Shown piece after piece: positions 163 through 61,755 of a stretch of 64,000 nucleotides of DNA; positions within the stretch are counted from its first letter, which is position 1; each line of letters opens with the position of its first letter. The notes below the pieces were generated by a model that saw only the letters and a list, made by a program, of their open reading frames with translations, was not told where the DNA came from and searched no databases. The stretch is from the NCBI GenBank assembly GCA_030390025.1, contig JASTWF010000034.1, positions 868,001 through 932,000 of the forward strand, read 5' to 3'. The stretch comes from Squalus acanthias (lineage: Eukaryota). Made by a program: the position numbers and the translations under genes.

Positions 163-3100
163 TAGTTCATCTTTTCTCCATATATTTTTAATTGTGTCCA
201 ATGTTTCCAGACTCCCTTCCCCCTTATGTCCAGACAGGCACAGGTATCACCACTAATTATAATTTCGTAGGGTCCGCTCCATTTTGGGGCGAAGCCTGGC
301 TTGTCAGGCAGGACCTTCAGCATCACTTTGCTGCCCGCTGACGGCACGGAGGGTGTCATGACCCCCTCCTGTGCCTGATCCTGGAGTTCCTGATTGTCTC
401 GTACGGCTTGGCGCATCCCCTTCAGTTGGGTGCTAAGCTCTAAGACATAACGCCGTAGTCTGTCCTTTAAGGGGCCCACATCAGCCCCACCTGTTATGAT
501 GCCTTCTGGTAATTGCATCGCCCTTCCTGTCATTAGTTCATAAGGGGTCAGGCCTGTCGTACGATTCGTGGTGGCTCGTAACTTCATTAGGATAAGGGGT
601 AAAACCTCAACCCATGTTTTCCCAGATTCCTGTATTGCCTTTGCTAAAGCGTTTTTGAGTGTTCGATTCATTCTTTCAACCATTCCCGAGCTCTGGGGGT
701 GGTAAGGGATATGGAACTTCTGTTTGATCCCCATCAGCTGACAAATATTCTTTACTACACTCCCTGTAAAGTGCGTTCCTTGGTCAGAGTCGATTTGCAA
801 GGGCACTCCCCACCGCGGGATTACTTCCTCGGCCAGGATTCTGGCTACCGTTAAGGCCGTGCAATTCCGCGTTGGGAAAGCTTCTACCCACCTTGTGAAC
901 TGGTCAATTATCACAAGGCAGTATATTTTTCCGTGGGACTGGGGAAGTGGTCCCGTAAAATCAATTTGTATGTGCTCCCAAGGACCTCGGGGTCTTGGCT
1001 GGTGGCCCATTCTAATTTTAATAGGCCGGCCAGGATTATGCTGAGCACAAGTGATACATCGCTGACAGTGCCTCGCGATGTCTCTTCCCATCCCCTTCCA
1101 CCACCAATCCTTACTTAATAAGGAGCTCATTGCCTCTCTCCCTGTATGTGAAATACCGTGATGTATCTCTAGCAGAGTCTGTTGTATGCACTCCGGTGCT
1201 ACTACTTTACCTTCTTTTCGCCAGACTCGATCGGATCCTACTCCAGCTCCATTTCTTACCCATGTTTCCTTTTCCGTGTCTGATGCTTCGTCTTGGACTT
1301 CCCAGATCTTTATTTCGTTCTCCGGGCTGTCTACGCTGCCCACCAGTACTTCGTTTATCTCCTCCTGTTCTAGAGCTGCCTGTGCTGCCCAATCAGCCGC
1401 CTGGTTCCCCTGGTGGCTGTCCCAGTCTGGGCTTGTCTTGTCTGGTTCTTTCTGATGGGCCTTAATTTTGATAACTGCCACCTGTTTAGGTCTTTTGCTT
1501 GCTTCTAGCAAGGCCTCTATTCGTCCCTGATGTTTGATGGGGTTACCTCCTGTGGTTATATACCCTCTACGTCCCCATGCTGTCATGTAGTCATGCACTA
1601 CCCCGAAGGCATACCGGCTATCTGTGTATATATTGACTACCTGGTTCTTTGCTTCATTCAATGCTTGAGTCAACGCGACCAACTCTGCTACTTGGGCTGA
1701 TAAGCTACCGTCTAACCGTCCAGATTTAACTACTTCCATCTTACTATTAACTACTGCCCACCCGGTTCGGGGTTGTCCATTAATATATTTACGGGATCCA
1801 TCTACATAGAATGTTTCCTCCACTTCCTCTAGAGGGGTGTCTTTGATAATCTCTTCTCCAATGTCCTCGTCTATTTTTTTACAACTGTGTGGGGCTCCTG
1901 TTCCCAGGATCCCCTCAGCTGGGTTCTCCCCTATGTCTCTGACTATGATGATAGACTCGTTAGGGGGTAATAGAACTGCTTCCCACTTAGCTCTTCTCAT
2001 GTTTGAGACAGATCTTAATTTTCCAGTATTTAGCATTTCCACCAAGGTATGCTTGGTGTGCAAGACTATGTTCCCGGTCATTACTATAGGTTCGCTCACC
2101 TTTACTGCCCATGCTGCGCAGTCCAGTGCCGCTATACATCGCGAGAGTCCGGAGACTACCGGTCCTTCTGCGGTCGAGTAGTATGCCACTGGTCTGCGCT
2201 TATCGCCATGGTCCTGGGTTATCACAGCGGTGTAGAACCCGCCCTCATTGTCACAGTGAATATGGAAAGGTTTGTTCATATCTGGCAGCCCTAGTCCCGG
2301 GGCTGACAGTAACTCCTTCTTCAACTGTCCGTAAGCTTTTTCCTGTTCTGGGCCCCACTCTATGGACTCAAGGGCAGGCCTTCCTCCCTTTACTAACCTT
2401 TGGATAGGCTCAGCTATCTTAGCGAACCCGGGGACGAAGTTCCTGCTGTAGTTAAAAAGTCCTAAGACCTTCCTAACTCCCCTTATTGTCACTGGTCTGG
2501 GCATATCCCAGACTGCAGCCTTCCTATCCGTTGGCATCTCCTTTGTCCCTTGGGAAATGAGATGCCCTAGATACGTGACTTTGAACTTTCCAATCTGGGC
2601 CTTCCTAGGGCTAGCCTTCAGTCCTGCGTCCCTTAATGCTGTCAGTACTATCTTCAGGGCCTTATTATGACCTGGAACTTTGTCCGAGGCTATCAGGAGA
2701 TCGTCAACGTACTGGAGGACCGTGCTCCCTGGTGGGAGCTCTGCACCCTTTAAAATATTACTCATTACCCGATGGAAGATCGCGGGGCTATTATGGAATC
2801 CTTGTGGCAGGCGGGTCCAGGTGTACTGTCTGTCTCCTACTGTGAATGCAAATTTCTCCTGAGACTCTGGATCCAATGGGAGAGCCCAGAATCCGTTGGC
2901 TATGTCCAACACTGTGAATATCTTGTGTTCGGGAGCCAGTCCGTTCAAAATTGTGGACGGGCTGGCGACTATGGGGTGAAGCTTGGGCGTCACTTTATTC
3001 AAGGCCGTATAGTCAATTGTCAGCCTGTAACTCCCATCTGGCTTTTTAACTGGCCACGTAGGGGAATTGGTTGTGCTCGTGGTTTCCCGAAGGACACCTC

Positions 3101-3719
3101 TTTCTACCAATCCCTTTACTATGTCTTCTACAGCTTTCTTTGCTTCTGGTTTAATGGGATATTGTCGGTGGGGTTTGTGTTCGGGTCCTGGGACGACAAT
3201 GGGGTCAATCTGAACCATTCCTGTGTCTAACTTATCTTTTGCCCATACTCCTTGTACCGAGGCACACGTGTCCCCGTACCCATTGGTTTCCACTTGCCAG
3301 TCCCGGCTTACCGCTGTAGCCACTCCCACTTTGGTGGTATTATTGGTCAGACAGTGCATACTAGTTTTATGCCCGTCCAAGTTTGGCCAAGTTATTTTCT
3401 TCTTACCACAATCAATTAATACCTGGTATTCTTTCATTAAGTCATTTCCCATTATTGTTCCCTCATTATTCTTACACACGTAAAATCGCATAGGGATGAA
3501 AAAGTTATCTATTTCTACCAATTGGGTTGTGCTCAGAAAGGCAGGTGTTTTATCACCGCCAATCCCTGTGATGTAGACCTTTCTGTCCGTTATCGGGATG
3601 GGAAGGTTGGTCACGGATACTGAGGCACCGGTGTCCACTAGCATCTCACACGGTCGGCCCCCTACTAGTGCAGACACATACATCCTTCCTTTGTCTCTTT
3701 TTACGGGGGCCGCTGACTG
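162..3719 (-). CDS. pol: Retroviral Pol (protease, RT, tether/degenerate RNase H, RNase H, integrase); frame open from 3719, first ATG at 3683
   Basis: LVDTGA protease; LPQGFHNSP and YVDD in RT; FYVDGS..SAQVAEL..IYTDS..KIKAH RNase H; HHCC, IDFTGP/DSDQG/VERMN integrase core; KWSGPY module. Uninterrupted ORF. Confidence 0.96.
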   Translation of the reverse strand, partial: QSAAPVKRDKGRMYVSALVGGRPCEMLVDTGASVSVTNLPIPITDRKVYITGIGGDKTPAFLSTTQLVEIDNFFIPMRFYVCKNNEGTIMGNDLMKEYQVLIDCGKKKITWPNLDGHKTSMHCLTNNTTKVGVATAVSRDWQVETNGYGDTCASVQGVWAKDKLDTGMVQIDPIVVPGPEHKPHRQYPIKPEAKKAVEDIVKGLVERGVLRETTSTTNSPTWPVKKPDGSYRLTIDYTALNKVTPKLHPIVASPSTILNGLAPEHKIFTVLDIANGFWALPLDPESQEKFAFTVGDRQYTWTRLPQGFHNSPAIFHRVMSNILKGAELPPGSTVLQYVDDLLIASDKVPGHNKALKIVLTALRDAGLKASPRKAQIGKFKVTYLGHLISQGTKEMPTDRKAAVWDMPRPVTIRGVRKVLGLFNYSRNFVPGFAKIAEPIQRLVKGGRPALESIEWGPEQEKAYGQLKKELLSAPGLGLPDMNKPFHIHCDNEGGFYTAVITQDHGDKRRPVAYYSTAEGPVVSGLSRCIAALDCAAWAVKVSEPIVMTGNIVLHTKHTLVEMLNTGKLRSVSNMRRAKWEAVLLPPNESIIIVRDIGENPAEGILGTGAPHSCKKIDEDIGEEIIKDTPLEEVEETFYVDGSRKYINGQPRTGWAVVNSKMEVVKSGRLDGSLSAQVAELVALTQALNEAKNQVVNIYTDSRYAFGVVHDYMTAWGRRGYITTGGNPIKHQGRIEALLEASKRPKQVAVIKIKAHQKEPDKTSPDWDSHQGNQAADWAAQAALEQEEINEVLVGSVDSPENEIKIWEVQDEASDTEKETWVRNGAGVGSDRVWRKEGKVVAPECIQQTLLEIHHGISHTGREAMSSLLSKDWWWKGMGRDIARHCQRCITCAQHNPGRPIKIRMGHQPRPRGPWEHIQIDFTGPLPQSHGKIYCLVIIDQFTRWVEAFPTRNCTALTVARILAEEVIPRWGVPLQIDSDQGTHFTGSVVKNICQLMGIKQKFHIPYHPQSSGMVERMNRTLKNALAKAIQESGKTWVEVLPLILMKLRATTNRTTGLTPYELMTGRAMQLPEGIITGGADVGPLKDRLRRYVLELSTQLKGMRQAVRDNQELQDQAQEGVMTPSVPSAGSKVMLKVLPDKPGFAPKWSGPYEIIISGDTCACLDIRGKGVWKHWTQLKIYGEKMN

Positions 3720-3734
3720 TCACTGTGTCTCTTT

Positions 3735-5054
3735 CTACTGTTGATATTGTCTCTTTTCTTCGGGGGTCATGGTGACGTGGGTCGTCTCAGGTCTGCCATG
3801 TTTACTGAAACAAGTGGCCTCAGTATGGCCCTTCTTATTACAGTAAGTACATGTCTTCTTAGCCATACAATCTCTAATAAAATGTCCAGGCTTCCCGCAA
3901 CCATGACATGCCCCCTTGGGTCCCACTGCCTGTTTTACCGCACTTACACTTTCCTGTTTAACCTTGACCGTACCTTCCTCTTTGGCTTTTAACCCGTCTA
4001 CCCCACAAGCCCACTCTACTAGGTCGTCGTAATTCCTGGTTGTTACTACGCCCATCTTGATGATAGCCTGGTGTGCGGGAGACAAGCCATCTTTAAAGGC
4101 CTGAATGAAAGCGGGGTCAGTTCTTGCCGGCCCTGGTTGGCCTGATGACTCTCCATAAACAATAAACAGCCTTTCTCCATATTCGGAGGCCCCCTCGCCC
4201 TTTTGCTGCTTACAGGACGTTATCTTACTCCAATTAGTTGGGGCCTCTCCTAACACCCGCTGGATTTCTGTTTTAAACAGATTAAAGGGAGCCTGTTGTC
4301 GGTCTATTGTATCTGCCAATGGACATTGTTCAGTCCATCGACCGGTCTTATAATCCGTATTGGCCTGATTGGGGGTGGTCTGCGTGAGGCGCCATCGGTC
4401 GACCGGACATGCTGCCCGGACCAACTGATGAACGTCACGCAGGTGGAGGCTGTGTCCCAGCCAAACCATATCTAGGTTTGCCCAGAACTTGGTGTTGGCA
4501 CTTCGTGTTTGTAAGTTCCCCAGGTCTTTCAAAATCTGTTGTCTTTCTCCCGGGGTAAAAGGCTGAAAATCCGCCCTTGCCCCGGCGGCACCAGGCTGGC
4601 CCCTCATTCTAACGGGGGCCGCGAAATATTCTTCTGTTGTATCCCCAACTGTTTCTTCAGTTGGGGCTGTTGGTCCGGAAAGTCCGTACGGGGGGAGTGG
4701 ATCTGTGTTACACCCCGTCCACCTTCCGGGACACATTCTACTTTGTTCTTGATTTATTCCCTCTAGTATTTCTATCTTCTTTTTTAAATCTGCTATTTCT
4801 CTGTTTTTGGCCTTCTCAGTCTCTCGGACCTTATCTACTTGCTCGATTAGTCCCGCCAATTGGTGTACCAAAAGAACTCCCGTTTTCTTGGTTTTCTCCC
4901 TTTTTTGCTTACGTACCCACTCTCGTTGTGACTCTAATGACTGGCTAACATCCCAGCCATCTTTCTGCATTCTGTCTATCAGCGAACGTCTATCTGTCAT
5001 GTAACTATTAATAAGGGACCCCGGGGGCCCCATCTTAATGTCCTTACCTGACAT
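3735..5054 (-). CDS. gag: Retroviral Gag polyprotein (439 aa)
   Basis: Late-domain-like LPPY and PTAP motifs, MHR-like ITSCKQQKGEGASEYGERL, two zinc knuckles CHGCGKPGHFIRDC and CTYCNKKGHTEATC. Confidence 0.92.
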   Translation of the reverse strand: MSGKDIKMGPPGSLINSYMTDRRSLIDRMQKDGWDVSQSLESQREWVRKQKREKTKKTGVLLVHQLAGLIEQVDKVRETEKAKNREIADLKKKIEILEGINQEQSRMCPGRWTGCNTDPLPPYGLSGPTAPTEETVGDTTEEYFAAPVRMRGQPGAAGARADFQPFTPGERQQILKDLGNLQTRSANTKFWANLDMVWLGHSLHLRDVHQLVRAACPVDRWRLTQTTPNQANTDYKTGRWTEQCPLADTIDRQQAPFNLFKTEIQRVLGEAPTNWSKITSCKQQKGEGASEYGERLFIVYGESSGQPGPARTDPAFIQAFKDGLSPAHQAIIKMGVVTTRNYDDLVEWACGVDGLKAKEEGTVKVKQESVSAVKQAVGPKGACHGCGKPGHFIRDCMAKKTCTYCNKKGHTEATCFSKHGRPETTHVTMTPEEKRQYQQ

Positions 5055-5397: not shown

Positions 5398-5416
5398 AAC
5401 CCTGCTCGCAGCGCCA
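5398..5416 (-). promoter_or_regulatory. Primer-binding site, tRNA-Ser type
   Basis: Minus strand TGGCGCTGCGAGCAGGGTT. Plus strand AACCCTGCTCGCAGCGCCA resembles the 3' end of vertebrate tRNA-Ser(UGA/CGA) plus CCA (tRNA sequence recalled, not searched). Confidence 0.8.
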
Positions 5417-5418
5417 AT

Positions 5419-5928
5419 TGTTGTAGGGGCTAATCGGAGCCTTAAGCGGACTAACCGTGAAGGAGAGTCGACGCGCTACCCGACTTAGCCCGACTGAGCA
5501 ATAAAACTCAAACACCAATTTACACGGTTAAATGCGGGAGTACACTTTATTCAGAGCGCTCTGGGAGAGAATTGATGCACCCACGTGCAGTCACCGACCT
5601 CTCAAATAAGTCACTCTGGGGCACAGTATTTTATACATCCATCATTGATTACATCGTGCTCACATGAGCATGTGATAGTCATTAGAATCCAATCAATTTT
5701 ATGTATACAATTGTTAAGCATAGTAAATCAATTAACGTCAGGATACAGTTGATGTGATCAGCCTCGTCTATGTGACAGTGTTATCTCGAGCCCTGTATGT
5801 TGCAACGTTGTCTGACAAGGCAGACTGCCAATCCATTGCAGAAAAGTCCTGTGTCAGCGAATTTAAAGTTCATTAACTGGATGAGTTTTTCTTCTCCGAC
5901 ATTTCTTTAATAATTTTCTCCTCCAACA
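5419..5928 (-). repeat. ERV 5' LTR (510 bp)
   Basis: Minus strand starts TGTTGGAG (5928) and ends CTACAACA (5419), 2 nt before the PBS. TATAAAA at 5635-5629 and AATAAA at 5551-5546. CR1 sequence starts abruptly at 5929. Confidence 0.88.
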
Positions 5929-7848
5929 GTCTTAAATAATAGTTTCTAGCATCTTCCCTAAGACAGGTGTTAAGCTAACTGGCCTGTAGTTTCCTGCTTT
6001 CTGTCTCCCTCCCTTTTTGAATAAAGGAGTTACAATCGCTATTTTCTAATCTAATGGAACCTTCCCCGAATCTTGGGAATTTTGGAAAATTAAAACCAAC
6101 GCATCAACTATCTCACTAGCTACTTCTTTTAAGACCCTAGGATGAAGTCCATCAGGACCCGGGGACTTGTCAGCCCGCATCTCCAACAATTTCCTCAGTA
6201 CTACTTCCCTGGTGATTGTAATTTTCTTGACTTCCTCCCTCCCTTCCATTTCCTGATTTACAGCTGTTTCTGGGATGTTACTTGTATCATCTATAGTGAA
6301 GACCGATGCAAAATACCTGTTCAATTCAACTGCCATCTCCTTATTTTCCATTATTAATTCCCCAGACTCACTTTTTATAGGACCAACGCTCCCTTTGTTA
6401 AATATTTTCTTTTTAGAATATCTGTAGAAACTCTTACTATCTGTTTTTATATTTCTAGCTAGCTTTCTCTCGTAATCTAATTTTTCTCTCCTTATTAATC
6501 TTTTAGTAATTCTTTGCTGTTTGTTTATATTCTGTCCAATCTTCTGACCTGCCACCCATCTTTTCACCAATATATGCTTTTTCTTTAAGTTTGATAATAT
6601 CTTTAACTTTTTTAGTTAACCACGGATGGTGGGTCCTCCCCTTGGAATTTTTCTTTCTCTTCGGAATGGATCTATTCTGTGTATTCTGAAATATCCCATT
6701 AAATGTCTGCCACTGCAGCTCTATTGACCTATCGCTTACTCCAGTTTGCCAGTTCACTTTAGCTAGCTCTGCTATCATGCCCTCATAATTGCCCTTATTT
6801 AAGTTAAAAAAAACTAGTCTTGGACCAAATCTTCTCTCCCTCAAACTGAATGTAAAATTCAATCATATTATGATCGCTGCGACCTAGGGGCACCTTCACT
6901 ATGTGGTCATTAATTAATCTTATCTTGTTTCACAATACCAGGTCCACTATAGCCTGCTCTCTGGTTCGCTCCAGAACGTGCTGTTCTAAGAAACTGTCCC
7001 AAAAACATTCTATGAACTCCTCATCTGGGCTACCTTTGCCCATCTGATTTTTCCGTCTATATGTAGATTAAAATCCCCCATGATTATTGCCGTACCTTTC
7101 TGACAAGCTCCCATTATTTCTTCCTTGATACTCCATCCTAACGTGTGGTTACTGTTAGGGGGCCTGTACACCACTTTCACAAGTGACTTCTTGCCTTCAT
7201 CATTTCTCATCTCTACCCAAACCGCTTCTAAATCCTGGTTTCCTGAAATTAAGTCATCCCTCTATTGCGTTAATACCATTATTAATTTACAGAGCCACCT
7301 CTCCACTTTTTCCTGAATATCATGTACCCTTCAATATTCAGGTCCCAATGTTTGTCATCCTGCAGCCATGTCTCTGTAATGGCTATCAGATTGTACTTAT
7401 TTAATTCTATTTGCGCCATCAGTTCATCTGTTTTGTTTCGAATGCTACGTGCATTCAGATACAGAGTCTTTAGTTTTGTCCTTTTATTATTTTTGTAACC
7501 TTTAGCCTTATCTGTTGATTTACTCTTAGATTTGTACTCTCTGTCCCTTCCCGTCACGGTCTGTTTATCATTTCCCATATTAATACCTTTCTCGCTTGTC
7601 TTGTTTCTACACTTTGATTTACCACATCTTCCCAGATTTGATCCCTGGCCCCCAATATTTAGTTGAAAGCCCTCTCTACCGCCCGAGTTATATGACTCGC
7701 CAGAACACTGGTCCCAGCACGGTTCAGGTGAAGACCAACCCAACGGTACAGATCCCAGTTTCCCCAGTACTGGTGCTAGTGCCCCAGGAAGCAAAACCAC
7801 TTTCTCCCATACCAGTCTTTGAGCTACGCATTCATCTCTCTAATTTGA
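5929..7848 (-). mobile_element. CR1 LINE, decayed ORF2 5' half (APE endonuclease to start of RT), interrupted by the ERV
   Basis: YLNARSIRNK, IAITETW, VYRPPN, IMGDFN, KSPGPDGLHPRVLKE across frameshifted ORFs. Confidence 0.92.
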
Positions 7849-48089: not shown

Positions 48090-49165
48090 CTTCTCTTCCC
48101 GCTCCCACATCGTAACCTCTTGTTTCCCCCAAGGATCTGTCCTTCGCGCCCTTCTATTTCTCATCTACATGTTGCCCCTTGGTGACATCATCCAGAAACA
48201 CAGTCAGTTTCCACATGTACGCTGACCACACCCAGCTCTACCTCACTACCTCTTCACTCGACCCCTCCACGGTGTCTAAATTGTCAGACTGCTTGACCGA
48301 CATGAGCAAAAGTTTCTCCAAGTAAATATTGGGAAGACCGAAGCCATTGTTTTCGGTCCCTGCCACCAACACCGTTCCCTCGCCACAGACTCAATCCATC
48401 TCCCTAACTTCTGTCTCAGGCTGAACCACACTGTTCGCAACATTGGTGTCATATTTGACCCTGAAATGAGCTTCCGACCACATATCCACAGCATAACAAA
48501 GGCCGTCTACTTCCACCTCCATAACATCGCCCGTCTCCGCCCTTGCCTCCTCTCATCCGCTGCTGAAACCCTCATCCATGCCTTTGTTACTTCTAGACTT
48601 GACTATTCCAACGCACTCCTGGCTGGCCTCCCACATTCCACCCTATGTAAACTTGAGGCCATCCAAACCTCGGCTGCCCGTGTCCTAACTCACACCAAGT
48701 CCCGTTCACCCATTTCCCCTGTGCTCGCTGACCTACACTGGCTCCCGGTTAAGCAGCACCTCGATTTCAAAATTCTCATCCTTGTTTTCAAATCCCTCCA
48801 TGGCCTCGCCCCTTCCTATCTCTAATCTCCTTCAGCCCCACAACCCCCCGAGATATCTGCGCTCCTCTAATTCTGCCCTCTTGAGCATCCATGATTATAA
48901 TCGCTCAACATTTGGTTGCCGTGCCTTCTGTTGCCTAGGCCCTAATTCTGGAATTCCCAGCCGAAACCTCTCCGCCTCGCTACCTCTCTTTCCTCCTTGG
49001 AGACGCTCATTAAAACCTTCCACTTTGACCAAGCTTTTAGTCACCTGTCCTAATTTATCCTTCTTTGGCTCAATGTCAAAATTTTGTCTTAAAATACTCC
49101 TGTGAAGCGCCTTGGGACGTTTTACTACGTTAAAGGTGCTATTTAAATACAAGTTATAGTTGTTG
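48090..49165 (+). mobile_element. L2-type LINE 3' portion
   Basis: PQGSVL..LLFLIYMLPLG, FVTSRLDYSNALL, LHWLPV, 3' UTR. Confidence 0.9.
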
Positions 49166-49179
49166 TACATCTCTGGCTC

Positions 49180-49275
49180 TATAGAATCATAGAATGGATA
49201 CAGGACAGAAGGAGGCCTTACGGCCCGTCGAGCCCGTGCCGGCTCTCTGCAAGAGCACTTCAGCAAGTCCCACTT
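49180..49275 (-). mobile_element. CR1/SINE 3' tail fragment
   Basis: Minus strand ends ggcctccttctgtcctgtatccattctatgattctat. Confidence 0.6.
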
Positions 49276-49659
49276 ATCCAATCCCCTTTTCATATACTCT
49301 ACACCCCTAACTGTAACACTGATATACCCCACACCCCTCACTGTTACACTGATATACCCTACACCCCTCACTGTAACACTGATACACCACAAACCCCTCA
49401 CTGTAACACTGATACACCACAGACCCCTCACTGTAACACTGATATACCCCACACCCCTCACTGTAACACTGATAAACCACAGACCCCTCACTGTAACACT
49501 GATATACCCCACACCCCTCACTGTAACACTGATTTACCCCACACCCCTCACTGTAACACTGATATACTCCACACCCCTCACTGTAACACTGATATACCCC
49601 ACACTCCTCACTGTAACACTGATATACTCCACACCCCTCACTGTAATTCTGATATGCAC

Positions 49660-49853
49660 TGTCGTAAGAATGAGCCTTACGCGTGGTGAACTTAAAGTAA
49701 GCTTTAATCAACTAAAAAGGTGCTACATACAAAAGAGGTCTTACTCTATGCCTCTCCAGGATCCAACTGCTCAGTCCAGTATTTATCCTGGACTAATCAC
49801 AGGAAGTGATGCAATAAAGTTCGAGTCACAGGAAGCTGTATTGTGTTACCACA
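49660..49853 (-). repeat. Gypsy 3' LTR
   Basis: Direct repeat of 53907-54100; preceded on the minus strand by a G-run plus AGAA. Confidence 0.96.
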
Positions 49854-49871
49854 TTCTCCCCCCCCAAAAGA

Positions 49872-52800
49872 TTAGGAGGCCGGGATGCTCCCTCCATTTC
49901 GTAGCCGCCGGACGAGGGAGAGCCGCACCCGTTTGGGTTCTCGTAGCGGTAGAGGGGCCCTAGCCCGTTTACCCGCCGCGGGCCGTGGACCAGAGTCCGA
50001 GTGATCCAGCCCGCTCTGTGAGGGGTCAGGACGATCCTGACTGTGTACTGGTGCCCGAACGGGTGTCGGGCAGGGCTGTGGCAGATCCGTTTCCGAGCGT
50101 ATGGTACGGGGTGGATCGTGGCTGCGCGTGCGAGCCCCGACGGGCTCATAGTCAGTCTGCCCCAGGTCGGCACGCTGGAGTGAGGTACCAGCCGGCGTCA
50201 GATCCAGATCGTGATGAGAGGCACCTGGCGAGCACAGAGATGTGCCTGGTACAATATCATCCCCTGGTGTCCCTCTATGTTTCGGCGGGCAGGGAGCCAG
50301 ATCCCGCAATGACACGGTAGATTCCCGACCGTCAGGATACCGAATATAGGCGTAGGTAGGGTTGACGTCAGTGAGCTCAACCTCATCTACCAGGGGGTCA
50401 TTCTTAGACGCCCGAACATATCTTCGGAGTAGCACTGGTCCCGGTGCAGTCAGCCACGATGGGAGAGATATCCCATAGGATGAGCGACGCTGAAATCGGA
50501 AGAACCGTTCATGAGGCGTCGTATTTGTGGCGGTCGAAAGGAGGGACCATGTGGAGTGTAATGCGTCTGGAAGTACTGCTTCCCATTGCTGGTTGGGTAG
50601 GCCCCGAGATCTCAAAGCCAGACGTACCGCATTCCAGATGATAGCGTTAAAACGCTCGACTTGCCCATTCCCGACCGGATGATAAGGCGTCGTTCTGCTG
50701 GCAGCAATACCCCGTTCCGAGAGATAGGCCTTGAGTTCTCCTGACATAAAAGAAGGGCCCCGATCCGAATGAACATAGGATGCCATGCCACAGAAAGCAA
50801 ATACCTGCTCAAGGCAGCTGATAACCGTGGTCGTCAGCATATTGGGGCAGGGAAAGGCGAACGGAAAACGGGAATACTCATCGACCATGGTCAATAGATA
50901 AGTGTTGCGAGTTGAAGAGGGCAACGGCCCCTTAAAATCGATGCTAAGCCGTTGCATTGGCTGGGTCGCATGTATGAGTATACCACCCGAGGGGCGGAAA
51001 AACTGAGGTTTCAATTCCGCACAGACTCTGCAGTCCGAGCACATCTTCTTTACATCCCCGGTAGAGAATGGGAGATTTCGGGAACGCACGAAGTGTAGCA
51101 TGCGAGTAACGCCCGGATGACACAACCCATCATGGATGTCTACGAGCATAGAGGGTGCCATGGCGGAGCAGAATGCTCGTGTGAGGGTATCCGGAGCCAC
51201 ATTCTCCTTGCCAGGTCGATAGTGGATGGTGTAACCAAAAGAGGCCAATTCCAGCCGCCAAAGCTGGATTTTATTATTTTTAATTTTGGTCCGTTTTCGA
51301 TTATCGAGCATGAAGGCGACCGATCGCTGGTCCGTGATTAAGGTAAAGTGCTGGCGAGCTAGGAGATGAGTCCACTTCCGTACTGCCTCTATGATGGCTG
51401 TAGCTTCTTTCTCGACTGGAGGATAATGTAGCTCAGCCCCTTGAAAAGTCCTGGACAAAAATGCCACCGGACGACCTTCCTGATTCAGAGTGGCCGAGAC
51501 CGCCACCTCCGAGGCATCACACTCAACAACAAAAGGAAGACTCTCATCGATGGAGTGAAGAGCCGCTTTCTCCAACTGTTTTTTCAGGAGGTTAAAGGCT
51601 GCAACAGCCGCTGTGTCTAGTGGGAATGTGCTGGCCTTCAGTAGAGGTTGGATTCGGTCCGAGAAGTTAGGAATCCATTTAGCATAGTATGCAAACAGGC
51701 CGAGGGCCCGGCGCAAGGAGGCCGGATTCTTAGGTGGCGGGAGCTCTTGGAGTGGGCGAAGCCTTTCAGGGTCAGGTTTAATGATGCCATTGCCCACACA
51801 ATAGCCAAGGATGTTGATGGTTGGTTGTGACTCAATGGATTTAGCCGCATTTAATGTCAAATTACGGTGCTGGAGTGCATCCCAAAATCGTTGGAGATTG
51901 GCGTCATGTTCCCGCTGATTGCGACCTGCGACAGTAATATTGTCCAGATAAGGAAACGTATCCTTCAAGTCTTCCTGTTTGACCAGGTCATCCATTGCTC
52001 GCTGGAAGACAGCCACTCCAAAAGTGACCCCAAAGGGGAGGCGACGAAATTGATACAGCCGTCCATTGGCTTCAAAGGCCGTATACTGCTTGTCTGAGAC
52101 CTTCAAGGGTACCTGATGATAGGCACTTTTCAGATCATATGTTGAGAACACCGTGTACTCAGCCAGTTTATTAACCATATCATCGATGCGCGGCAATGGG
52201 TATGCATCCAAGTCCGTATATTGATTGATGGTCTGTGAATAGTCAATGCACAGCCGTTTCTTGTGAGGTTGTAGAGGGTTCTTAACAATAACGACCTGGG
52301 CGCGCCATGGCGACGAACAAGGCTCGATGATATCCTCTGCTAAAAGCCAAGAAATCTCAGCCGCAATAAAAGACTGGTCTTCCTGACTGAAACGTCGTGA
52401 CTTTGTTATAATCGGTTTGCATCGAGGAGGGATACTGGTAAACAGTGAGGGTTCATCCAGTGAAGCTGCTGACAATGCACAGAACGGTAATCGAGGTCGT
52501 ATATTAGAAATAGTGAGTTCAGGTTTGGATCCGCCGAACTCAATGGTGAGCTTCTTATGCTGCTTTTGAAAATCCAGCCCTAAGATAAGATCACTACATA
52601 AGTCCTTGAGCACCGAAAGCCGGGTGGAGGGATACCTGTGACCATTAAGTGTTATTTCAACCATACAAAAGCCAGAAATTCTGGTATTAAGTGATGACTG
52701 AGCCATCGCAATTGCCTGGTCCGATGGGAAAACATGTAGCTTTAACTCTGCAACAATCTGTTCCCTAATGAAACTATCAGTGCTACCTGAGTCAATTAAG

Positions 52801-53828
52801 GCATCTAAAGTATGTCCATTAATTGATGCTTTTGTAGCTGCATGGAATAGGTTCTGAGGACAAGCAGCTGTAATTGGTGTCGTTGCACAAAGAGTGGCTG
52901 AAACTCTAGGTGTGTTTCTTCGAGAGAAAACCCGAGAGGAAGCACGATAGATTTTAGCCGGAACATCTTGATAGGCCCTTACCGGGGCAGTTCGGTAGGA
53001 CTTAGCTTGATAAGCCCTCGTAGAGGCTCTTGATAGGCAAACCTTTGCAAAATGACCCTTTTTGTTGCAATGACTGCAAAACGCATTGCGAGCAGGGCAG
53101 AATTTCCGAGGGTGAAACTCATCACCACAAAAGAAGCATTTCTTAGATTGCCAAGAGGCTGCCACAGTGGGGTCATCATCCTCTTCATCAGTGAAGTCAT
53201 CAGATTGATCGTCAGGAATAAAGTCCTCCCTAATAGAGTTCACCTCTGGCCTCTTAAATTGCCTGACTGTAGTTAAGGCAGCAGACCGAGGTCTGGGCAC
53301 TGTATAAAGGTCTGCATTTCTTTTTGCCAGATCTAGAGAGCAAGCCATGTCATAAGCTCTCTGAAGCTCAAGTGTCTTACTTTCCAGTAGACGCTGGCGT
53401 ATAAATGGGGAGGCAAGCCCGCAGATGAAAGCATCACGGATCATTTCTTCACGGTACAGCTCAGCTGAGGCCGCCTGAAAGTTACAGTCCATACTAAGTC
53501 TGCGAAGCTCTTGGAGGAATTTATCAATGGATTCCTCCGGCCCTTGTTGGGCTGTAGCTAGTAGATGTCTGGCATAGACCTCATTCGGTGTCTTAGTATA
53601 TAGTCTTTTAAGCGTCCGAATTGCCTCCTCGTAACTGCCCCATTCCTCAACATACTGAAATACATTCGGAGTGACACAGTTGATGAGTATCCGCAACTTT
53701 GTGTCATCATCAGCCTTGCAATATTCGAGAAAATTGTCAAACGTGCGATACCAGTGTTTCCACACCTTACCGGCTGCTGGGGTGTTTGGGTCCAAGTCAA
53801 GACGCGATGGTTTAAGGATGTTTTCCAT
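49872..53828 (-). CDS. Gypsy Gag-Pol polyprotein (1318 aa)
   Basis: Two CCHC knuckles, LIDSGS protease, YLDN RT, ECDAS RNase H, HHCC and IDFKGP/HSDRG/QVER integrase; order PR-RT-RH-IN. Confidence 0.96.
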   Translation of the reverse strand: MENILKPSRLDLDPNTPAAGKVWKHWYRTFDNFLEYCKADDDTKLRILINCVTPNVFQYVEEWGSYEEAIRTLKRLYTKTPNEVYARHLLATAQQGPEESIDKFLQELRRLSMDCNFQAASAELYREEMIRDAFICGLASPFIRQRLLESKTLELQRAYDMACSLDLAKRNADLYTVPRPRSAALTTVRQFKRPEVNSIREDFIPDDQSDDFTDEEDDDPTVAASWQSKKCFFCGDEFHPRKFCPARNAFCSHCNKKGHFAKVCLSRASTRAYQAKSYRTAPVRAYQDVPAKIYRASSRVFSRRNTPRVSATLCATTPITAACPQNLFHAATKASINGHTLDALIDSGSTDSFIREQIVAELKLHVFPSDQAIAMAQSSLNTRISGFCMVEITLNGHRYPSTRLSVLKDLCSDLILGLDFQKQHKKLTIEFGGSKPELTISNIRPRLPFCALSAASLDEPSLFTSIPPRCKPIITKSRRFSQEDQSFIAAEISWLLAEDIIEPCSSPWRAQVVIVKNPLQPHKKRLCIDYSQTINQYTDLDAYPLPRIDDMVNKLAEYTVFSTYDLKSAYHQVPLKVSDKQYTAFEANGRLYQFRRLPFGVTFGVAVFQRAMDDLVKQEDLKDTFPYLDNITVAGRNQREHDANLQRFWDALQHRNLTLNAAKSIESQPTINILGYCVGNGIIKPDPERLRPLQELPPPKNPASLRRALGLFAYYAKWIPNFSDRIQPLLKASTFPLDTAAVAAFNLLKKQLEKAALHSIDESLPFVVECDASEVAVSATLNQEGRPVAFLSRTFQGAELHYPPVEKEATAIIEAVRKWTHLLARQHFTLITDQRSVAFMLDNRKRTKIKNNKIQLWRLELASFGYTIHYRPGKENVAPDTLTRAFCSAMAPSMLVDIHDGLCHPGVTRMLHFVRSRNLPFSTGDVKKMCSDCRVCAELKPQFFRPSGGILIHATQPMQRLSIDFKGPLPSSTRNTYLLTMVDEYSRFPFAFPCPNMLTTTVISCLEQVFAFCGMASYVHSDRGPSFMSGELKAYLSERGIAASRTTPYHPVGNGQVERFNAIIWNAVRLALRSRGLPNQQWEAVLPDALHSTWSLLSTATNTTPHERFFRFQRRSSYGISLPSWLTAPGPVLLRRYVRASKNDPLVDEVELTDVNPTYAYIRYPDGRESTVSLRDLAPCPPKHRGTPGDDIVPGTSLCSPGASHHDLDLTPAGTSLQRADLGQTDYEPVGARTRSHDPPRTIRSETDLPQPCPTPVRAPVHSQDRPDPSQSGLDHSDSGPRPAAGKRARAPLPLREPKRVRLSLVRRLRNGGSIPAS

Positions 53829-53906
53829 GATGGGTGATTCCCTGGATCCTTAGTTCCGAGTTCGTCCAAAAAGTTTGAGTGCGAAGTTTTTCAAAGTTGA
53901 TTAAAT

Positions 53907-54100
53907 TGTCGTAAGAATGAGCCTTACGCGTGGTGAACTTAAAGTAAGCTTCAATCAACTAAAAAGGTGCTACATACAAAAGAGGTCTTACTCTATGCCT
54001 CTCCAGGATCCAACTGCTCAGTCCAGTATTTATCCTGGACTAATCACAGGAAGTGATGCAATAAAGTTCGAGTCACAGGAAGCTGTATTGTGTTACCACA
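53907..54100 (-). repeat. Gypsy 5' LTR
   Basis: Direct repeat of 49660-49853. Confidence 0.96.
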
Positions 54101-56293
54101 TGCACCACTCCCCTCACTGTAACACTGACATACCCCACACCCCTCACTGTAACACTGATATACCCCACACCCCTCACTGTAACACTGATATACCCCACAC
54201 CCCTCAGTGTAACACTGATATACCCCACACCCCTCACTGTAAAACTGATACACCCCACACCCCTCACTGTAAAACTGATATACACAACACCCCTCACTGT
54301 AACACTGATATACTCCAAACCATTCACTGTAACACTGATGTACACCACACCACTCACTGTAACACTGATATATCCATATACCCCACACCCCTCAGTATGA
54401 CACTAAAATACCCCACACCCCTCACTGTAACGCACTGATATAAACCACACCCCTCACTGTAACACTGATATAGCCAACACCCCTCACTGTAACACAGATA
54501 TATACAGCACCCCACACTGTAAAACTCATAAACCCCACAACCATCACTGTAACACTGATATACACCACACCCTTCACTGTAACACTGATATAACCCATAC
54601 CCCTCACTGTAACACTGATATTACCCGACACCCCACACTGTAACACTGATATACCCCACACCCTTCACTGTAACACTGAAATATCCCGCACCCCTCACTT
54701 TAACACTGATATACCCCACATCCCTCACTGTAACACTGATGTACCACACAACTCTCACTGTAACACTGATATACCCCACACCCCTCACTGTAACACTGAT
54801 ATACCCCACACCCCTCACTGTAACACTGATATAACCGACACCTCTCACTGTAACACTGATATTACCCGACACCCCACACTGTAACACTGAGATACCCCAA
54901 ACCCTTCACTGTAACACTGATATACCCCACACCCCTCACTGTAACACTGATATACCCCACACACCTCACTGTAACACTGATATACCCCACACCACACACT
55001 GTAACACTGATATACCCCACACCCCTCACTGTAACACTGATATACCCCGCACCCCTCACTTTAACACTGATATACCCCACACCCCTCACTGTAACACTGA
55101 TATACCCCACACCCCTCACTGTAACACTGATATACCCCACACCCTTCACTGTAACACTGAAATATCCCGCACCCCTCACTTTAACACTGATGTACCACAC
55201 AACTCTCACTGTAACGCTGATATACCCCACACCCCTCACTGTAACACTGATATACCCCACACCCCTCACTGTAACACTGATATACCCCACACCCCTCACT
55301 GTAACACTGATATAACCGACACCCCTCACTGTAACACTGATATTACCCGACACCCCACACTGTAACACTGATATACCCCACACCCTTCACTGTAACACTG
55401 ATATACCCCACACCCCTCACTGTAACACTGATATACCCCACATCCCTCACTGTAACACTGATGTACCACACAACTCTCACTTTAACACTGATATACCCCA
55501 CACCCCTCACTGTAACACTGATATACCCCACACCCCTCACTGTAACACTGATATAACCGACACCCCTCACTGTAACACTGATATTACCCGACACCCCACA
55601 CTGTAACACTGAGATACCCCAAACCCTTCACTGTAACACTGATATACACCACACCCCTCACTGTAACACTGATATACCCCACACCCCTCACTGTAACACT
55701 GATATACCCCACACCACACACTGTAACACTGATATACCCCACACCCCTCACTGTAACACTGATATACCCCGCACCCCTCACTTTAACACTGATATACCCC
55801 ACACCCCTCACTGTAACACTGATATACCCCACACCCCTCACTGTAACACTGATATACCCCACACCCTTCACTGTAACACTGAAATATCCCGCACCCCTCA
55901 CTTTAACACTGATGTACCACACAACTCTCACTGTAACGCTGATATACCCCACACCCCTCACTGTAACACTGATATACCCCACACCCCTCACTGTAACACT
56001 GATATACCCCACACCCCTCACTGTAACACTGATATAACCGACACCCCTCACTGTAACACTGATATTACCCGACACCCCACACTGTAACACTGATATACCC
56101 CACACCCTTCACTGTAACACTGATATACCCCACACCCCTCACTGTAACACTGATATACCCCACACCCCACACTGTAACACTGATATACCCCACACCCCAC
56201 ACTGTAACACTGATATACCCCACACCCCTCACTGTAACACTGATATACCCCGCACCCCTCAATTTAACACTCTGATTCACTGGGAAGGCGAGC

Positions 56294-59200
56294 AGTGAGC
56301 TGCTGGTTTAGTGGGCCTGTGAGCTGCTGGTTTAGTGGGTCAGTGAGCTGCTGGTTTAGTGGACCAGTGAGCTGCTGGTTTAGTGGGCCAGTGAGCTGCT
56401 GGTTTAGTGGGCCAGTGAGCTGCTGGTTTAGTGGGCCAGTGAGCTGCTGGTTTAGTGGGCCAGTGAGCTGCTGGTTTAGTGGGCCAGTGAGCTGCTGGTT
56501 GAGTGACCAGTGAGCTGCTGGTTGTGTGGGCCAGTGAGTGCGGGTTTAGTGGGCCAGTGAGCTGCGGGTTTAGTGGGCCAGTGAGCTGCTGGTTTAGTGT
56601 GCCAGTGAGCTGCTGGTTTAGTGGGCCAGTGAGCTGCTGGTTTAGTGGGGTGGTGAGCTGCTGGTTTAGTGGGCCAGTGAGCTGCTGGTGTAGTGGGGTG
56701 GTGAGCTGCTGGTTTAGTGGGCCAGTGTGCTGCTGGTTTAGTGTGCCAGTGAGCTGCTGGTTTAGTGGGCCAGTGAGCTGCCAGTTGAGTGGCCAGTGAG
56801 CTGCTGGTTGTGTGGGCCAGTGAGTGCGTTTTTAGTGGGCCAGTGAGCTGCGGGTTTAGTGGGCCAGTGAGCTGCTGGTTTAGTGTGCCAGTGAGCTGCT
56901 GGTTTAGTGGGCCAGTGAGCTGCTGGTTTAGTGGGGTGGTGAGCTGCTGGTTTAGTGGGCCAGTGAGCTGCTGGTTTAGTGGGGTGGTGAGCTGCTGGTT
57001 TAGTGGGCCAGTGTGCTGCTGGTTTAGTGGGCCAGTGAGCTGCTGGTTTAGTGGGCCAGTGAGCTGCTGGTTTAGTGGGGTGGTGAGCTGCTGGTTTAGT
57101 GGGCCAGTGTGCTGCTGGTTTAGTGGGCCATGAACTGCTGGTTTAGTGGGCCAGTGAGCTGCTGGTTTAGTGGGGTGGTGATCTGCTGGTTTAGTGGGCC
57201 AGTGAGCTGCTGGTTTAGTGGGCCAGTGAGCTGCTTGTTTAGTGGGGAGGTGCGCTGCTGGTTTAGTGGGCCAGTGTTCTGCTGGTTTAGTGGGCCAGTG
57301 AGCTGCTGGTTTAGTGGGCCAGTGAGCTGCTGGTTTAGTGGGCCAGTGAGCTGCTGGTTTAGTCGGCCAGTGAGCTGCTGGTTTGGTGGGCCAGTGAGTG
57401 CGGGTTTAGTGGGCCAGTGAGCAGCGGGTTTAGTGGGCCAGTGAGCTGCTGGTTTAGTGGGGTGGTGAGCTGCTGGTTTAGTGGGCCAGTGAGCTGTTGG
57501 TGTAGTGGGGTGGTGAGCTGCTGGTTTAGTGGGCCAGTGTGCTGCTGGTTTAGTGTGCCAGTGAGCTGCTGGTTTAGTGGGCCAGTGAGCTGCCAGTTGA
57601 GTGGCCAGTGAGCTGCTGGTTGTGTGGGCCAGTGAGTGCGTTTTTAGTGGGCCAGTGAGCTGCGGGTTTAGTGGGCCAGTGAGCTGCTGGTTTAGTGTGC
57701 CAGTGAGCTCCTGGTTTAGTGGGCCAGTGAGCTGCTGGTTTAGTGGGGTGGTGAGCTGCTGGTTTAGTGGGCCAGTGAGCTGCTGGTTTAGTGGGGTGGT
57801 GAGCTGCTGGTTTAGTGGGCCAGTGTGCTGCTGGTTTAGTGGGCCAGTGAGCTGCTGGTTTAGTGGGCCAGTGAGCTGCTGGTTTAGTGGGGTGGTGAGC
57901 TGCTGGTTTAGTGGGCCAGTGTGCTGCTGGTTTAGTGGGCCATGAACTGCTGGTTTAGTGGGCCAGTGAGCTGCTGGTTTAGTGGGGTGGTGATCTGCTG
58001 GTTTAGTGGGCCAGTGAGCTGCTGGTTTAGTGGGCCAGTGAGCTGCTTGTTTAGTGGGGAGGGGCGCTGCTGGTTTAGTGGGCCAGTGTGCTGCTGGTTT
58101 AGTGGGCCAGTGAGCTGCTGGTTTAGTGGGCAGTGAGCTGCTGGTTTAGTGGGCCAGTGAGCTGCTGGTTTAGTGGGCCAGTGAGCTGCTGGTTTGGTGG
58201 GCCAGTGAGTGCGGGTTTAGTGGGCCAGTGAGCAGCGGGTTTAGTGGGCCAGTGAGCTGCTGGTTTAGTGTGCCAGTGAGCTGCTGGTTTAGTGGGCCAG
58301 TGAGCTGCTGGTTTAGTGGGCCAGTGAGCTGCTGGTTTAGTGGGGTGGTGAGCTGCTGGTTTAGTGGGCCAGTGAGATGCTGGTTTAGTGGGCCAGTGAG
58401 CTGCTGGTTTAGTGGGGAGGTGAGCTGCTGGTTTAGTGAGCCAGTGTGCTGCTGGTTTAGTGGGCCAGTGAGCTGCTGGTTTAGTGGGCCAGTGAGCTGC
58501 TGGTTTAGTGGGCTAGTGAGCTGCTGGTTTAGTGGGCCAGTGAGCTGCTGGTTTAGTGGGCCAGTGAGCTGCTGGTTTAGTGGGCCAGTGAGCTGCTTGT
58601 TTAGTGGGGAGGTGAGCTGCTGGTTTAGTGGGCCAGTGAGCTGCTGGTTTAGTGGGCCAGTGAGCTGCTTGTTTAGTGGGGAGGTGAGCTGCTGGTTTAG
58701 TGTGGAGGTGAGCTGCTGGTTTAGTGGGCCAGTGAGCTGCTGGTTTAGTGGTCCAGTGAGCTGCTGGTTTAGTGGGGTGGTGAGCTGCTGGTTTAGTGGG
58801 GCGGTGCGCTGCTGGTTTATTGGGGCGGTGAGCTGCTGGTTTAGTGGGCCAGTGAGCTGCTGGTTTAGTGGGCCAGTGAGCTGCTGGTTTAGTGGGGAGG
58901 TGAGCTGCTGGTTTAGTGAGGAGGTGAGCTGCTGGTTTAGTGGGCCAGTGAGCTGCTGGTTTAGTGGGCCAGTGAGCTGCTGGTTTAGTGGGCCAGTGAG
59001 CTGCGGGTTTAGTGGGGAGGTGAACTGCTGGTTTTGTGGGGAGGTGTGCTGCTGGTTTAGTGGGGAGGTGAGCTGCTGGTTTAGTGGGGAGGTGAGCTGT
59101 TGCTTTAGTGGGCCAGTGAGCTGCTGGTTTAGTGGGGTGGTGAGCTGCTGGTTTAGTGGGGAGGTGAGCTGCTGGTTTAGTGGGCCAGTGAGCTGCTGGT

Positions 59201-59697
59201 TTAGTGGGCCAGTGAGCTGCTGGTTTAGTGGGCCAGTGAGCTGCTGGTTTAGTGGGGAGGTGAGCTGCTGGTTTAGTGGGGAGTGAGCTGCTGGTTTAGT
59301 GGGGCGGTGAGCTGCTGGTTTAGTGGGGCGGTGAGCTGCTGGTTTAGTGGGGCGGTGAGCTGCTGGTTTAGTGGGGAGGTGAGGTGCTGGTTTAGTGGTG
59401 AGGTGAGCTGTTGGTTTAGTGGGGTGGTGAGCTGCTGGTTTAGTGGGGCAGTGAGCTGCTGGTTTAGTGGGGCGGTGAGCTGCTGGTTTAGTGGGGCAGT
59501 GAGCTGCTGGTTTAGTGGGCCAGTGAGCTGCTGGTTTAGTGGGGCGGTGAGCTGCTGGTTTAGTGGGGCGGTGAGCTGCTGGTTTAGTGGGGCGGTGAGC
59601 TGCTGGTTTAGTGGGGAGTGAGCTGCTGGTTTAGTGGGGCGGTGAGCTGCTGGTTTAGTGGGGAGGTGAGCTGCTGGTTTAGTGGGGCGGTGAGCTG
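56294..59697. repeat. 24-bp minisatellite (gtgagctgctggtttagtgggcca)
   Basis: Roughly 140 tandem copies. Confidence 0.96.
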
Positions 59698-60039
59698 TTA
59701 TCATTCGTTTTTCTTGCCCATTAATCTCTGTCAGTTTGTTCTTTACTCTCCCACACAGGTGTGTTAATTACCTGCTGCTGTAACCTTCAAACCCTCACAG
59801 CTTCCAATGTCCTTTACAAAAGGGACTGATTCTCTGGCCACACTCCCCAGCAGTCCTCCAGACACCTTGCTGGTATTAAATTCAATCTTCACACTCACCC
59901 ATGCTTGGCAGCAGATGTGTGTCTATCTGGACTGTGTTTTAACCTAACTTAATCCCATGTTATTCTAGCTTAATATTGAAATAACTCTATATGTCAACCA
60001 GTGTATTCTATTTAATAATCGATACATACCAATACTTAC

Positions 60040-60590
60040 AAGAACTTTTAAAAGGTCTGCTGTCAGAGTGAACCCGCTGGTTTTTCAGCAGGATGGGTGA
60101 CCGACTGAAGCCCTTCCCACGCACGGATCGGGTCAACAGTCTCTCCCCAGTGTGACTGTGCTGATGAATTTGCATCTCAGACGGATAATTGAATCCCTTC
60201 TCACATTCCCCACATTCCCACGGTTTCTCCATGGTCCATCTGTCTCTCCAGGTGGGACGATCGGTTGAAGCCTCGTCCACACACAGAACACGTGTACGGT
60301 TTCTCCCCGCTGTGAATGGTGCGAAGTTTTTTCAGGCTGTGTAACATGGTTACAGCTCTCTCCAGTCAGTGCACTGGAACACTCTCGTTCAAGTGTGAAT
60401 GGGTCTCGATGCTTTCCCAGTCACAATGTTTGAAATCCTTTCCCACACACAAGAACCCGAGAAAGATTTCTCCTTCCGCATTCAAAGGCCGATGATATTC
60501 AGGTCCTGATGAATCGAGTGACTCTGTCAGATCTTGGCGTGATGTTTGGTTTGAGTTTCTTGTCTACAAATCCTCCCCTTCTCATACCCT
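60040..60590 (-). pseudogene. Decayed C2H2 zinc-finger gene exon
   Basis: [47 protein letters not shown] (Cys lost); frameshifts; candidate intron 60589-60742 (donor G|gtaagg). Confidence 0.85.
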
Positions 60591-60809
60591 TTAAAAGGAG
60601 ATTACAAAAGTCATCACTAAGTACAGGACAGAAATTCAGAACAGAGAATTCTCGTTTCTATGGTACAATCTTTCCTCTCGTATTTCCCCCCAAAAGCTGT
60701 AACTTTCTGTCCCACACACTCTCCCTCTCCTGAAATCCTTACCCATTGCACCATATCTTTTCCCCTCTCCCAGTCTCTCCCACCCTCTGCTCTCCAGTTC
60801 TACAGACCC

Positions 60810-61315
60810 TGTGTGCGAGGAGTGTGATGGAATACTCTCCACTTGCCTTGATGAGTACAGCTCCAACAACACTCCAGAAGCTCGACACCATCCAAGACAA
60901 AGCAGCCCGCTTGATTGACAACCCATCCATCACCTTACACCTTCGCTTCCTCCACCACCGGTGTACCGTGGCTGCAGTGTGTACCATCTACAAGATGCAC
61001 TACAGCAACTCGCCAAGACATCTTCGCCAGCACCACCCAAACCCGCAACCTCTTCCACCTAGAAGGACAAGGGCAGCAGATGCATGGGAACCCCACCACC
61101 TCCAGGTTCCCCTCCAAGTCACACACCATCCTGACTTGGAAGTGTATCGCCGATCCTTCATCGTCGCTGGGTCAAAATCCTGGAATTCCCTACCGACGGA
61201 CTGCAGCGGTTCAAGAAGGCAGATCACCACCACCTTCTCAAGGGCAGTTAGGGATGGGCAATAAATGCTGGCCTTGCCAGCGACCCTCACATCCCATAAA
61301 CGAATAATAAAAAAG
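60810..61315 (+). mobile_element. LINE 3' end, paralogue of 16250-16698
   Basis: SVMEYSPLA..LDTIQDKAARLI; same tail and same downstream flank. Confidence 0.85.
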
Positions 61316-61319
61316 TGCT

Positions 61320-61755
61320 TCTGCTGCAGTTGCACTGAGGGCCGCACATGCGCCCTGACCCCCGCCCTGTCCAAGATGGCGGCGCGGGGAAAAGTCCCGC
61401 CTTCCTTCACCAAGATGGCGGCCGGTTGCCGGGGTAACCCGGGCCTGTCGCCGGGGAGAAAGCCTTCAGCAAGTTGGTGGACAGTCGCCCCGCTCACTCG
61501 AGCCGCCGGGCCTGGCGCTGCGGCGCAAACACAAGGCCCCGCGTGTTCTTATTCGGGGCCTGAGGCCTAGGCCAGGTGTTTGTGAAGCTTCCCAGACCCC
61601 GCGCCGCCTGTTCCTCTTCGGCCCTCTGAATCTCCTGCCGGCTCTTGAATCGTTTGTTCGGCCATTAGTACAACAGGAAATGCTCTGACGAAGTTATCGA
61701 CCTGAAACGTTGTCTTCTGTTTCTCTCCCCGCCAAGTTCCTGCTGCCGCCATTGC
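61320..61755. promoter_or_regulatory. CpG-island-like element, paralogue of 16700-17125
   Basis: Two AAGATGGCGGC motifs, GC boxes; lies upstream of the minus-strand zinc-finger relic. Confidence 0.55.

Follow-up and report, generated by a model that had tools for sequence, protein, structure and literature searches.

The stretch analysed here, 64,000 nucleotides of the Squalus acanthias genome (hereafter the window; GenBank assembly GCA_030390025.1, contig JASTWF010000034.1, positions 868,001 to 932,000), carries on its minus strand a complete, very young, multicopy endogenous retrovirus whose gag and pol genes lie in one reading frame. We identify TGA at 3722–3720 as the gag stop of this family and propose, with a probability of about 0.72, that Pol is made by occasional readthrough of this codon, stimulated mainly by a downstream RNA helix (S1) and helped by a CARYYA hexamer directly after the stop. 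That retroviruses read through a gag stop lying in frame is textbook knowledge, and the use of UGA for this purpose in fish retroviruses is likewise known; what appears to be new is a conserved, covarying structure downstream of the stop that is combined with interchangeable leaky contexts. Gag–pol readthrough at UGA has been reported for salmon, zebrafish and toad viruses in a 2026 review (PMC13517186; like most papers here, cited from excerpts). For fish retroviruses the excerpted parts of that review give only stop hexamers, where we can now name a specific covarying structure of ~70 nt.

On the minus strand the junction reads CAG TAG AAA GAG ACA CAG TGA CAG TCA GCG ... AGG ATG. An initial annotation of this DNA had placed TAG at 3737–3735, TGA at 3722–3720 and CAGTCA at 3719–3714, with gag and pol in the same frame, and direct reading bore this out to the base. 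A 445-codon gag frame (5072–3735) is followed by a 1185-codon pol frame (3719–162), with four sense codons separating the two stops. Pfam domains comprise two zinc knuckles in gag and, in pol, the order protease, reverse transcriptase (RT), tether, RNase H (with dual RNase H) and integrase.

The two stops have different histories. We compared 30 loci, including the window copy, that are 99–100% identical to one another. TGA is present in all 30 and TAG in only one, so that both stops being fixed in the family is ruled out; moreover, contigs from all eight public sequencing runs examined read otherwise at the TAG codon. The double stop that drew attention to this junction is therefore a defect of the window copy, or an assembly error, and only damage in one copy. 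The annotation had explained TAG as a CAG>TAG lesion of this copy. A lesion it is, but CAG is ruled out as its source, as the other copies have a sense codon other than CAG at that position. The annotation had also taken TGA for the real readthrough codon; it is indeed the gag stop of the family, and readthrough itself is what we infer. In the window copy, Gag would stop at TAG, five codons short and in a context without known leakiness, and this provirus would presumably be unable to make its own Pol. CAGTCA follows the stop in 29 of the 30 copies, which says little because the copies are nearly identical.

As near-identical copies cannot test conservation, diverged relatives were sought. We fetched 98 further stretches, hand-picked from match lists and in some cases covering the same place twice. 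The resulting 128 loci fell into 21 clusters at 85% nucleotide identity and are 27–78% identical to the window pol over the aligned parts; six loci (L037, L061, L105, L110, L112 and L125) were out of register or lacked the junction. All 21 cluster representatives carry an in-frame stop 29–32 codons before the protease Asp, and because they all do, its presence is beyond chance. The stop is UGA in eight representatives and UAG-G in 13.

What these junctions have in common is the helix S1. In the window, an 8-base arm (3712–3705) that begins seven bases past TGA is perfectly complementary to 3662–3655, on the Gly-Gly-Arg codons of protease. All 21 clusters have a G+C helix at this place, its first base lying 7–8 nt past the stop and its partner codons ~45 nt further on. 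The distance from stop to helix is fixed at 6–8 nt, and it is the loop separating the two arms that varies in length (33–42 nt). RNAalifold found S1 unaided, as the sole element of the consensus structure of the 21 representatives, among which 92.8% of its cells are paired and three of its nine pairs are changed on both sides. A second helix, S2, has six pairs, formed between the codons that immediately precede the 3′ arm of S1 and those that immediately follow. Here 91.7% of cells are paired and five of the six pairs change on both sides, several of these changes altering amino acids on both strands. Jointly, S1 and S2 are paired in 92.3% of cells, compared with 38–48% when the partners are slid. 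When 127,120 six-pair helices were scanned along the alignment of junction and pol, three had at least 90% pairing and at least two compensated pairs: two registers of S1, and S2.

Codon usage and outside records point the same way. Third-base conservation is 0.93 at codon 18 and 0.85, 0.95 and 0.89 at codons 20–22, whereas 64 four-fold sites further into pol average 0.47, none of them reaching 0.85. Only six of 6144 synonymous recodings give the eight Watson–Crick pairs of S1. The helix is found in the same register in three records from other sources (L145, L147 and L130). At one of its pairs, C-G is replaced by U-A in clusters 6, 8 and 9, which represent one lineage, and also in L145 and L147; L130 has the same replacement at another pair. 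Within the window family the pairing probability of S1 is 1.00. The arms follow one another as S1a-S2a-S1b-S2b, as in a pseudoknot whose first loop is long and whose linkers are very short. Judging from these models, S1 and S2 may form a long-loop pseudoknot or, alternatively, a two-state switch.

Several observations weigh against this structure as the stimulator. The window's own stretch has modest fold z-scores (−1.76 over 83 nt, −0.34 over 123 nt). Covariation of S1 and S2 holds for the clade, but S2 is weak in the window family, where, as in cluster 3, four of its six pairs form; cluster 15 retains three, and L130 has S1 without S2. Clusters 1 and 3 have a shorter S1. The encoded amino acids dictate three pairs of each helix, few lineages supply the compensatory changes (clusters 6, 8 and 9 counting as one), the shuffle control ignores relatedness, and the loci were picked by hand. 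A published genome-wide scan lists no pseudoknot after the gag stop of snakehead retrovirus (PMC3835772, as excerpted). Finally, in nested folding over 200 nt, S1 exceeds a pairing probability of 0.5 in only six of the 21 representatives and S2 often wins; for this reason a switch between the helices, or a protein-level constraint on their sequence, is possible. No Rfam element was found at the junction, with four chance matches falling far below gathering scores, and no structure was seen 5′ of the stop (fold z −0.10).

Covariation proves structure rather than function, and S1 and S2 may be alternative folds. The helices could thus serve another purpose, such as packaging, control of splicing or RNA stability, and leave readthrough to the local context alone. 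We consider this improbable, since S1 stays 6–8 nt from the stop even though its loop ranges from 33 to 42 nt, and this distance is the spacing of known readthrough stimulators (PMC3542737, PMC13517186).

The local context, in contrast to the helix, varies among relatives. UGA is followed by CAG UCA in the window family only, by CGG, CUA G and AAG in two clusters each and by AGG in one; cluster 7 also has the near-variant UGA-CAG-GUA, and cluster 2 has UGA-CAA-GCA. The initial annotation had read the hexamer as a leaky-stop signal, a reading that a lack of conservation would count against. The fit to CARYYA stands. Conservation in the clade does not: the motif is present in one of 21 clusters and is a family-level detail, not a clade-wide signal. 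It does recur outside the clusters, in L147/L148 (~42% identical), as A-UAG-CAA-UUA, which is the tobamovirus context (PMC3542737). Because it recurs in so distant a relative, CARYYA is likely, on sequence grounds, one of several interchangeable leaky contexts. In cluster 7 (L074–L077), a very young, high-copy family, the context even differs among copies, being UGA-AAG or UGA-CAG-GUA; the end of Gag in this family has a charged stretch rich in Arg, Lys and Asp instead of a CCHC knuckle.

How much CARYYA matters in the window family depends on how two simpler explanations are judged. According to the first, the hexamer is a chance match without a role, and a C after UGA together with the helix accounts for everything. 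A match is expected at ~1 in 448 sites at this base composition, and four occur in frame among the 1186 pol codons. Two matches in 24 lineages have a nominal chance of 0.001–0.003, but without the family that prompted the question, one match in 23 lineages would arise with a chance of ~0.05–0.07. Its restriction to one cluster and the near-variants in clusters 7 and 2 also favour coincidence. On the other hand, L147 has the exact tobamovirus string, and the other UGA clusters mostly have known leaky contexts (CUAG, CGG). All in all, we find coincidence doubtful, though it deserves to be taken seriously.

The second explanation is a pure signal of the tobacco mosaic virus type, in which CARYYA alone drives readthrough in the window family and the helix is a relic without present importance. 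CARYYA is known to work without structure and with UGA (PMC3542737, PMC13517186, PMC4132726); in one mammalian reporter context it drives ~15% readthrough, UGA being about as good as UAG (PMC4132726). Moreover, S2 is weak precisely in this family, and L147 combines the motif with a weak S1 of six pairs, two of them G-U. Against this stands the state of S1 in the family itself: it is predicted to pair with near certainty, as noted above, and 28 of the 30 copies (stop plus arm) show it as a perfect G-C helix of 8 bp save for single-copy changes, with the 5′ arm altered in three of the 30 loci. In addition, the sister cluster (77% pol identity) has no CARYYA and nevertheless retains a 6-bp core of S1. 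We therefore regard a structure-free signal as unlikely, and hold it somewhat more probable than even that CARYYA contributes to readthrough alongside the helix.

Pol might also be made without any readthrough: a spliced mRNA could encode it, as in foamy viruses, or translation could start at an ATG at 3683. This ATG is in frame, 12 codons past the stop, and there is a donor-like site after the gag start. However, the ATG is found in only eight of the 21 representatives and is missing in the sister cluster. The AG dinucleotides around the junction lack a pyrimidine tract comparable to that of the env acceptor (0.21–0.63 compared with 0.79). For these two reasons, splicing or internal initiation is an unlikely source of Pol. 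Splicing would also need no strict conservation of frame across a single stop, yet this is kept in 21 clusters, and pol scores 376 bits with the MLV (murine leukemia virus)-type RT as opposed to 209 bits with foamy Pol. Taken together, these points make a Pol expressed independently of readthrough very unlikely. Contigs of eight of the ten listed runs hold no GT-AG joint into pol, but the env splice is unseen there as well, which makes them uninformative on splicing. Homologous proteins mostly begin at an internal Met, leaving the junction outside them.

Readthrough stimulated by S1 is the reading we prefer, because the frame is conserved and because gamma- and epsilon-type retroviruses, like snakehead retrovirus, are known to use readthrough (PMC1224870, PMC13517186). 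In the mechanism we envisage, most ribosomes would halt at UGA and release Gag, while a minority would insert an amino acid and continue into Pol, yielding Gag-Pol. S1, 7 nt downstream, would sit at the mRNA entrance of the ribosome, where it would delay termination in the manner of type II and type III signals. The local stop context would set the level of readthrough and could be exchanged on a constant helix.

Comparison with the established classes shows how freely contexts and structure combine. Type I signals (tobacco mosaic virus, UAG-CAR-YYA) share their hexamer with the window family and L147/L148, but the window family has UGA instead of UAG, together with a conserved structure of a kind that type I can do without. 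For LTR-retrotransposon gag–pol readthrough, too, CARYYA is cited as important (PMC3441728). Type II signals (alphaviruses and others) consist of UGA-CGG or UGA-CUA and an extended stem-loop ~8 nt on. Four of the eight UGA clusters (clusters 1–4) have these contexts, with the stem at the same distance. The window family, with UGA-CAG, has the conserved stem and not the context. Unlike in type II, the same stem is also found next to type I and type III contexts in this clade, and a second helix crosses it. The clade offers a natural series in which a single constant scaffold accepts, interchangeably, three readthrough classes that are usually known from viruses unrelated to one another. UGA-CGG or UGA-CUAG is also found at the gag–pol junction of three distant retroviral records outside the clade (L173, L178 and L213), and type II contexts may be widespread among non-mammalian endogenous retroviruses.

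The initial annotation had set this junction apart from the gammaretroviral signal of stop plus structure, a contrast that is not supported, as a conserved covarying downstream structure is the very feature shared within this clade. Moloney MLV, too, has one frame, a single stop before protease and a structure ~8 nt downstream; specifically, MLV uses UAG, an 8-nt spacer and a compact H-type pseudoknot. The gamma-type record L134 forms the 7-pair G18-C58 helix (MLV S2 in PMC13517186), with its G-run on the diglycine codons of protease. These are the same two codons before the catalytic Asp that hold the 3′ arm of S1 in the window. MLV stem 2 and the window S1 may therefore be homologous, which would link the structure described here to the MLV pseudoknot. 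The differences are considerable, however: in the window clade, S1 comes right after the spacer and closes a loop of 33–42 nt, no MLV-type S1 is present, a second helix surrounds the G-run, and the stop is UGA or UAG in varied contexts.

Fish and amphibian viruses (snakehead retrovirus, salmon swim bladder sarcoma virus, ZFERV and cane toad endogenous retrovirus) have an in-frame gag stop as well. The contexts given for them in PMC13517186 are UAGGGC in snakehead retrovirus and UGAAGA, UGACGA and UGAAGU in the other three. In its excerpted parts, that review names no CARYYA context or cis-element for these viruses and calls epsilonretroviral cis-elements unclear. An extended stem-loop is listed for epsilonretroviruses in PMC3542737, so there is some precedent for a stem behind the gag stop of a fish retrovirus. 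Term searches of PMC3159437 and PMC8672886, in the parts available, returned nothing on these junctions. In the open-access literature, taken without supplements (those of PMC3835772 and PMC7947760 could bear on the matter), we found neither this structure nor a retroviral CARYYA described.

As to classification, the solved structure closest to the window pol is an MLV-type RT. In a midpoint-rooted RT tree of 59 rows (four clusters with too little RT left out, and no foamy or loki references), 17 clusters from this genome fall together with L145, L147 and five proteins (98/86). The window-family RT lies outside the 25-row clade that includes the gamma-type records (100/98), its identity there being ~34%. 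The family has a gamma-type Env (TLV_coat) and lacks the gammaretroviral signal of UAG-G plus compact pseudoknot. Assignment to Lokiretrovirus was rejected, as the TLV_coat Env is unlike the paramyxovirus fusion protein-like Env of PMC7947760; two Gag zinc knuckles and the want of an acceptor-like site at the junction speak against a foamy virus, judged by the features given in PMC1224870. L130, the best viral match to the window pol, lies outside both main clades in this tree. It has the context UAGGGC and eight of the nine S1 pairs in the same register. From that context (PMC13517186) and its length, L130 appears to be snakehead retrovirus-like; the grouping of snakehead-related endogenous retroviruses used here is clade Huo of PMC8922424. 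Snakehead retrovirus is reported to have one zinc knuckle (PMC1224870) as opposed to two in the window family, whose primer is tRNA-Ser.

A more ambitious picture can be put forward tentatively, at somewhat less than even odds. Fish and shark retroviruses close to snakehead retrovirus would form a clade with a hitherto undescribed long-loop readthrough pseudoknot, built on the protease diglycine G-run that also underlies MLV stem 2. The stop and the bases next to it would have been swapped repeatedly among all three known types of leaky context (CARYYA, CUAG/CGG, UAG-G), and CARYYA would have arisen twice, where the structure was partly weakened.

Features of the provirus in the window (positions 1 to 64,000; all on the minus strand)
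Feature	Position	Strand	Evidence or remarks
5′ long terminal repeat (TG...CA)	5419–5928	−	513/514 identical to 3′ repeat; inserted in older LINE-like RT remnant
Primer-binding site, complementary to host tRNA-Ser(UGA)	5399–5416	−	46 exact genomic matches to complementary pattern
gag coding region of window copy	3738–5054	−	First ATG 5054; two CCHC-type knuckles ~3911–3801 (Pfam)
Premature TAG, private to window copy	3735–3737	−	1/30 loci; absent in contigs of 8/8 runs
Family gag stop TGA, putative readthrough codon	3720–3722	−	30/30 copies; 33/33 loci of cluster; in-frame stop at same place in 21/21 representatives
CARYYA hexamer CAGTCA, family-specific leaky context	3714–3719	−	32/33 loci in own cluster; 1/21 clusters
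pol frame, open, 1185 codons	162–3719	−	Protease Asp at 3635
Helix S1, 5′ arm, begins 7 nt past stop	3705–3712	−	Folding, alignment, covariation
Helix S1, 3′ arm, on protease Gly-Gly-Arg codons	3655–3662	−	Third-base conservation 0.85, 0.95, 0.89
Clade-wide helix S2 (3671–3666 with 3653–3648), encloses S1 3′ arm	3648–3671	−	4/6 pairs form in window family
Candidate alternative second helix of window family (3670–3663 with 3643–3636, 8 bp, abuts S1)	3636–3670	−	Without covariation support
Pyrimidine-rich splice-acceptor-like site right after pol stop, putative env acceptor	130–150	−	Sequence

The element has the full retroviral layout, gag, pol and env between long terminal repeats (LTRs), with a primer-binding site, a polypurine tract and a 4-bp target duplication. 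Its LTRs have TG...CA ends and are identical at 513 of 514 aligned bases; the 3′ LTR lies past the window start, in the adjoining stretch L031. Just past the window start, also in L031, env is a 490-codon frame with a TLV_coat domain (E 1.3e-16). A search of the 3.7 Gb genome gave 129 candidate places for further copies, of which 40 were scored, all being 98–100% matches. Four fetched matches to the primer site were submitted to tRNA calling; three were called tRNA-Ser(tga), and the fourth was left undetermined.

The provirus splits a decayed endonuclease/RT gene resembling that of a long interspersed nuclear element (LINE), with pieces on both sides (window 6046–7500 and L031 4906–5939), which we take to be CR1-like. 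A donor-like site lies just 3′ of the gag ATG (window 5054–5040, minus strand) and an acceptor-like site just 3′ of the pol stop (150–20). Between this acceptor and env there are short hydrophobic or Cys-rich frames, identical in all six other copies checked, which possibly encode a small accessory peptide.

Contigs of three of four runs join across a gap of 1758 bases (window 1933–3692), a multiple of three, with a 6-base overlap and ends that are not GT-AG. Protease, RT, tether and the S1 3′ arm are lost in this gap, and RNase H-integrase comes to follow the gag stop in the same frame. Sequencing depth in run X6 is far higher on both sides of the gap than within it. The joint probably represents a successful non-autonomous deletion derivative. 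Elsewhere in the window (7750–46000 and 49000–64000), a 67-bp repeat forms long arrays in both orientations, together with tandem arrays of 24-, 30-, 65- and 75-bp units.

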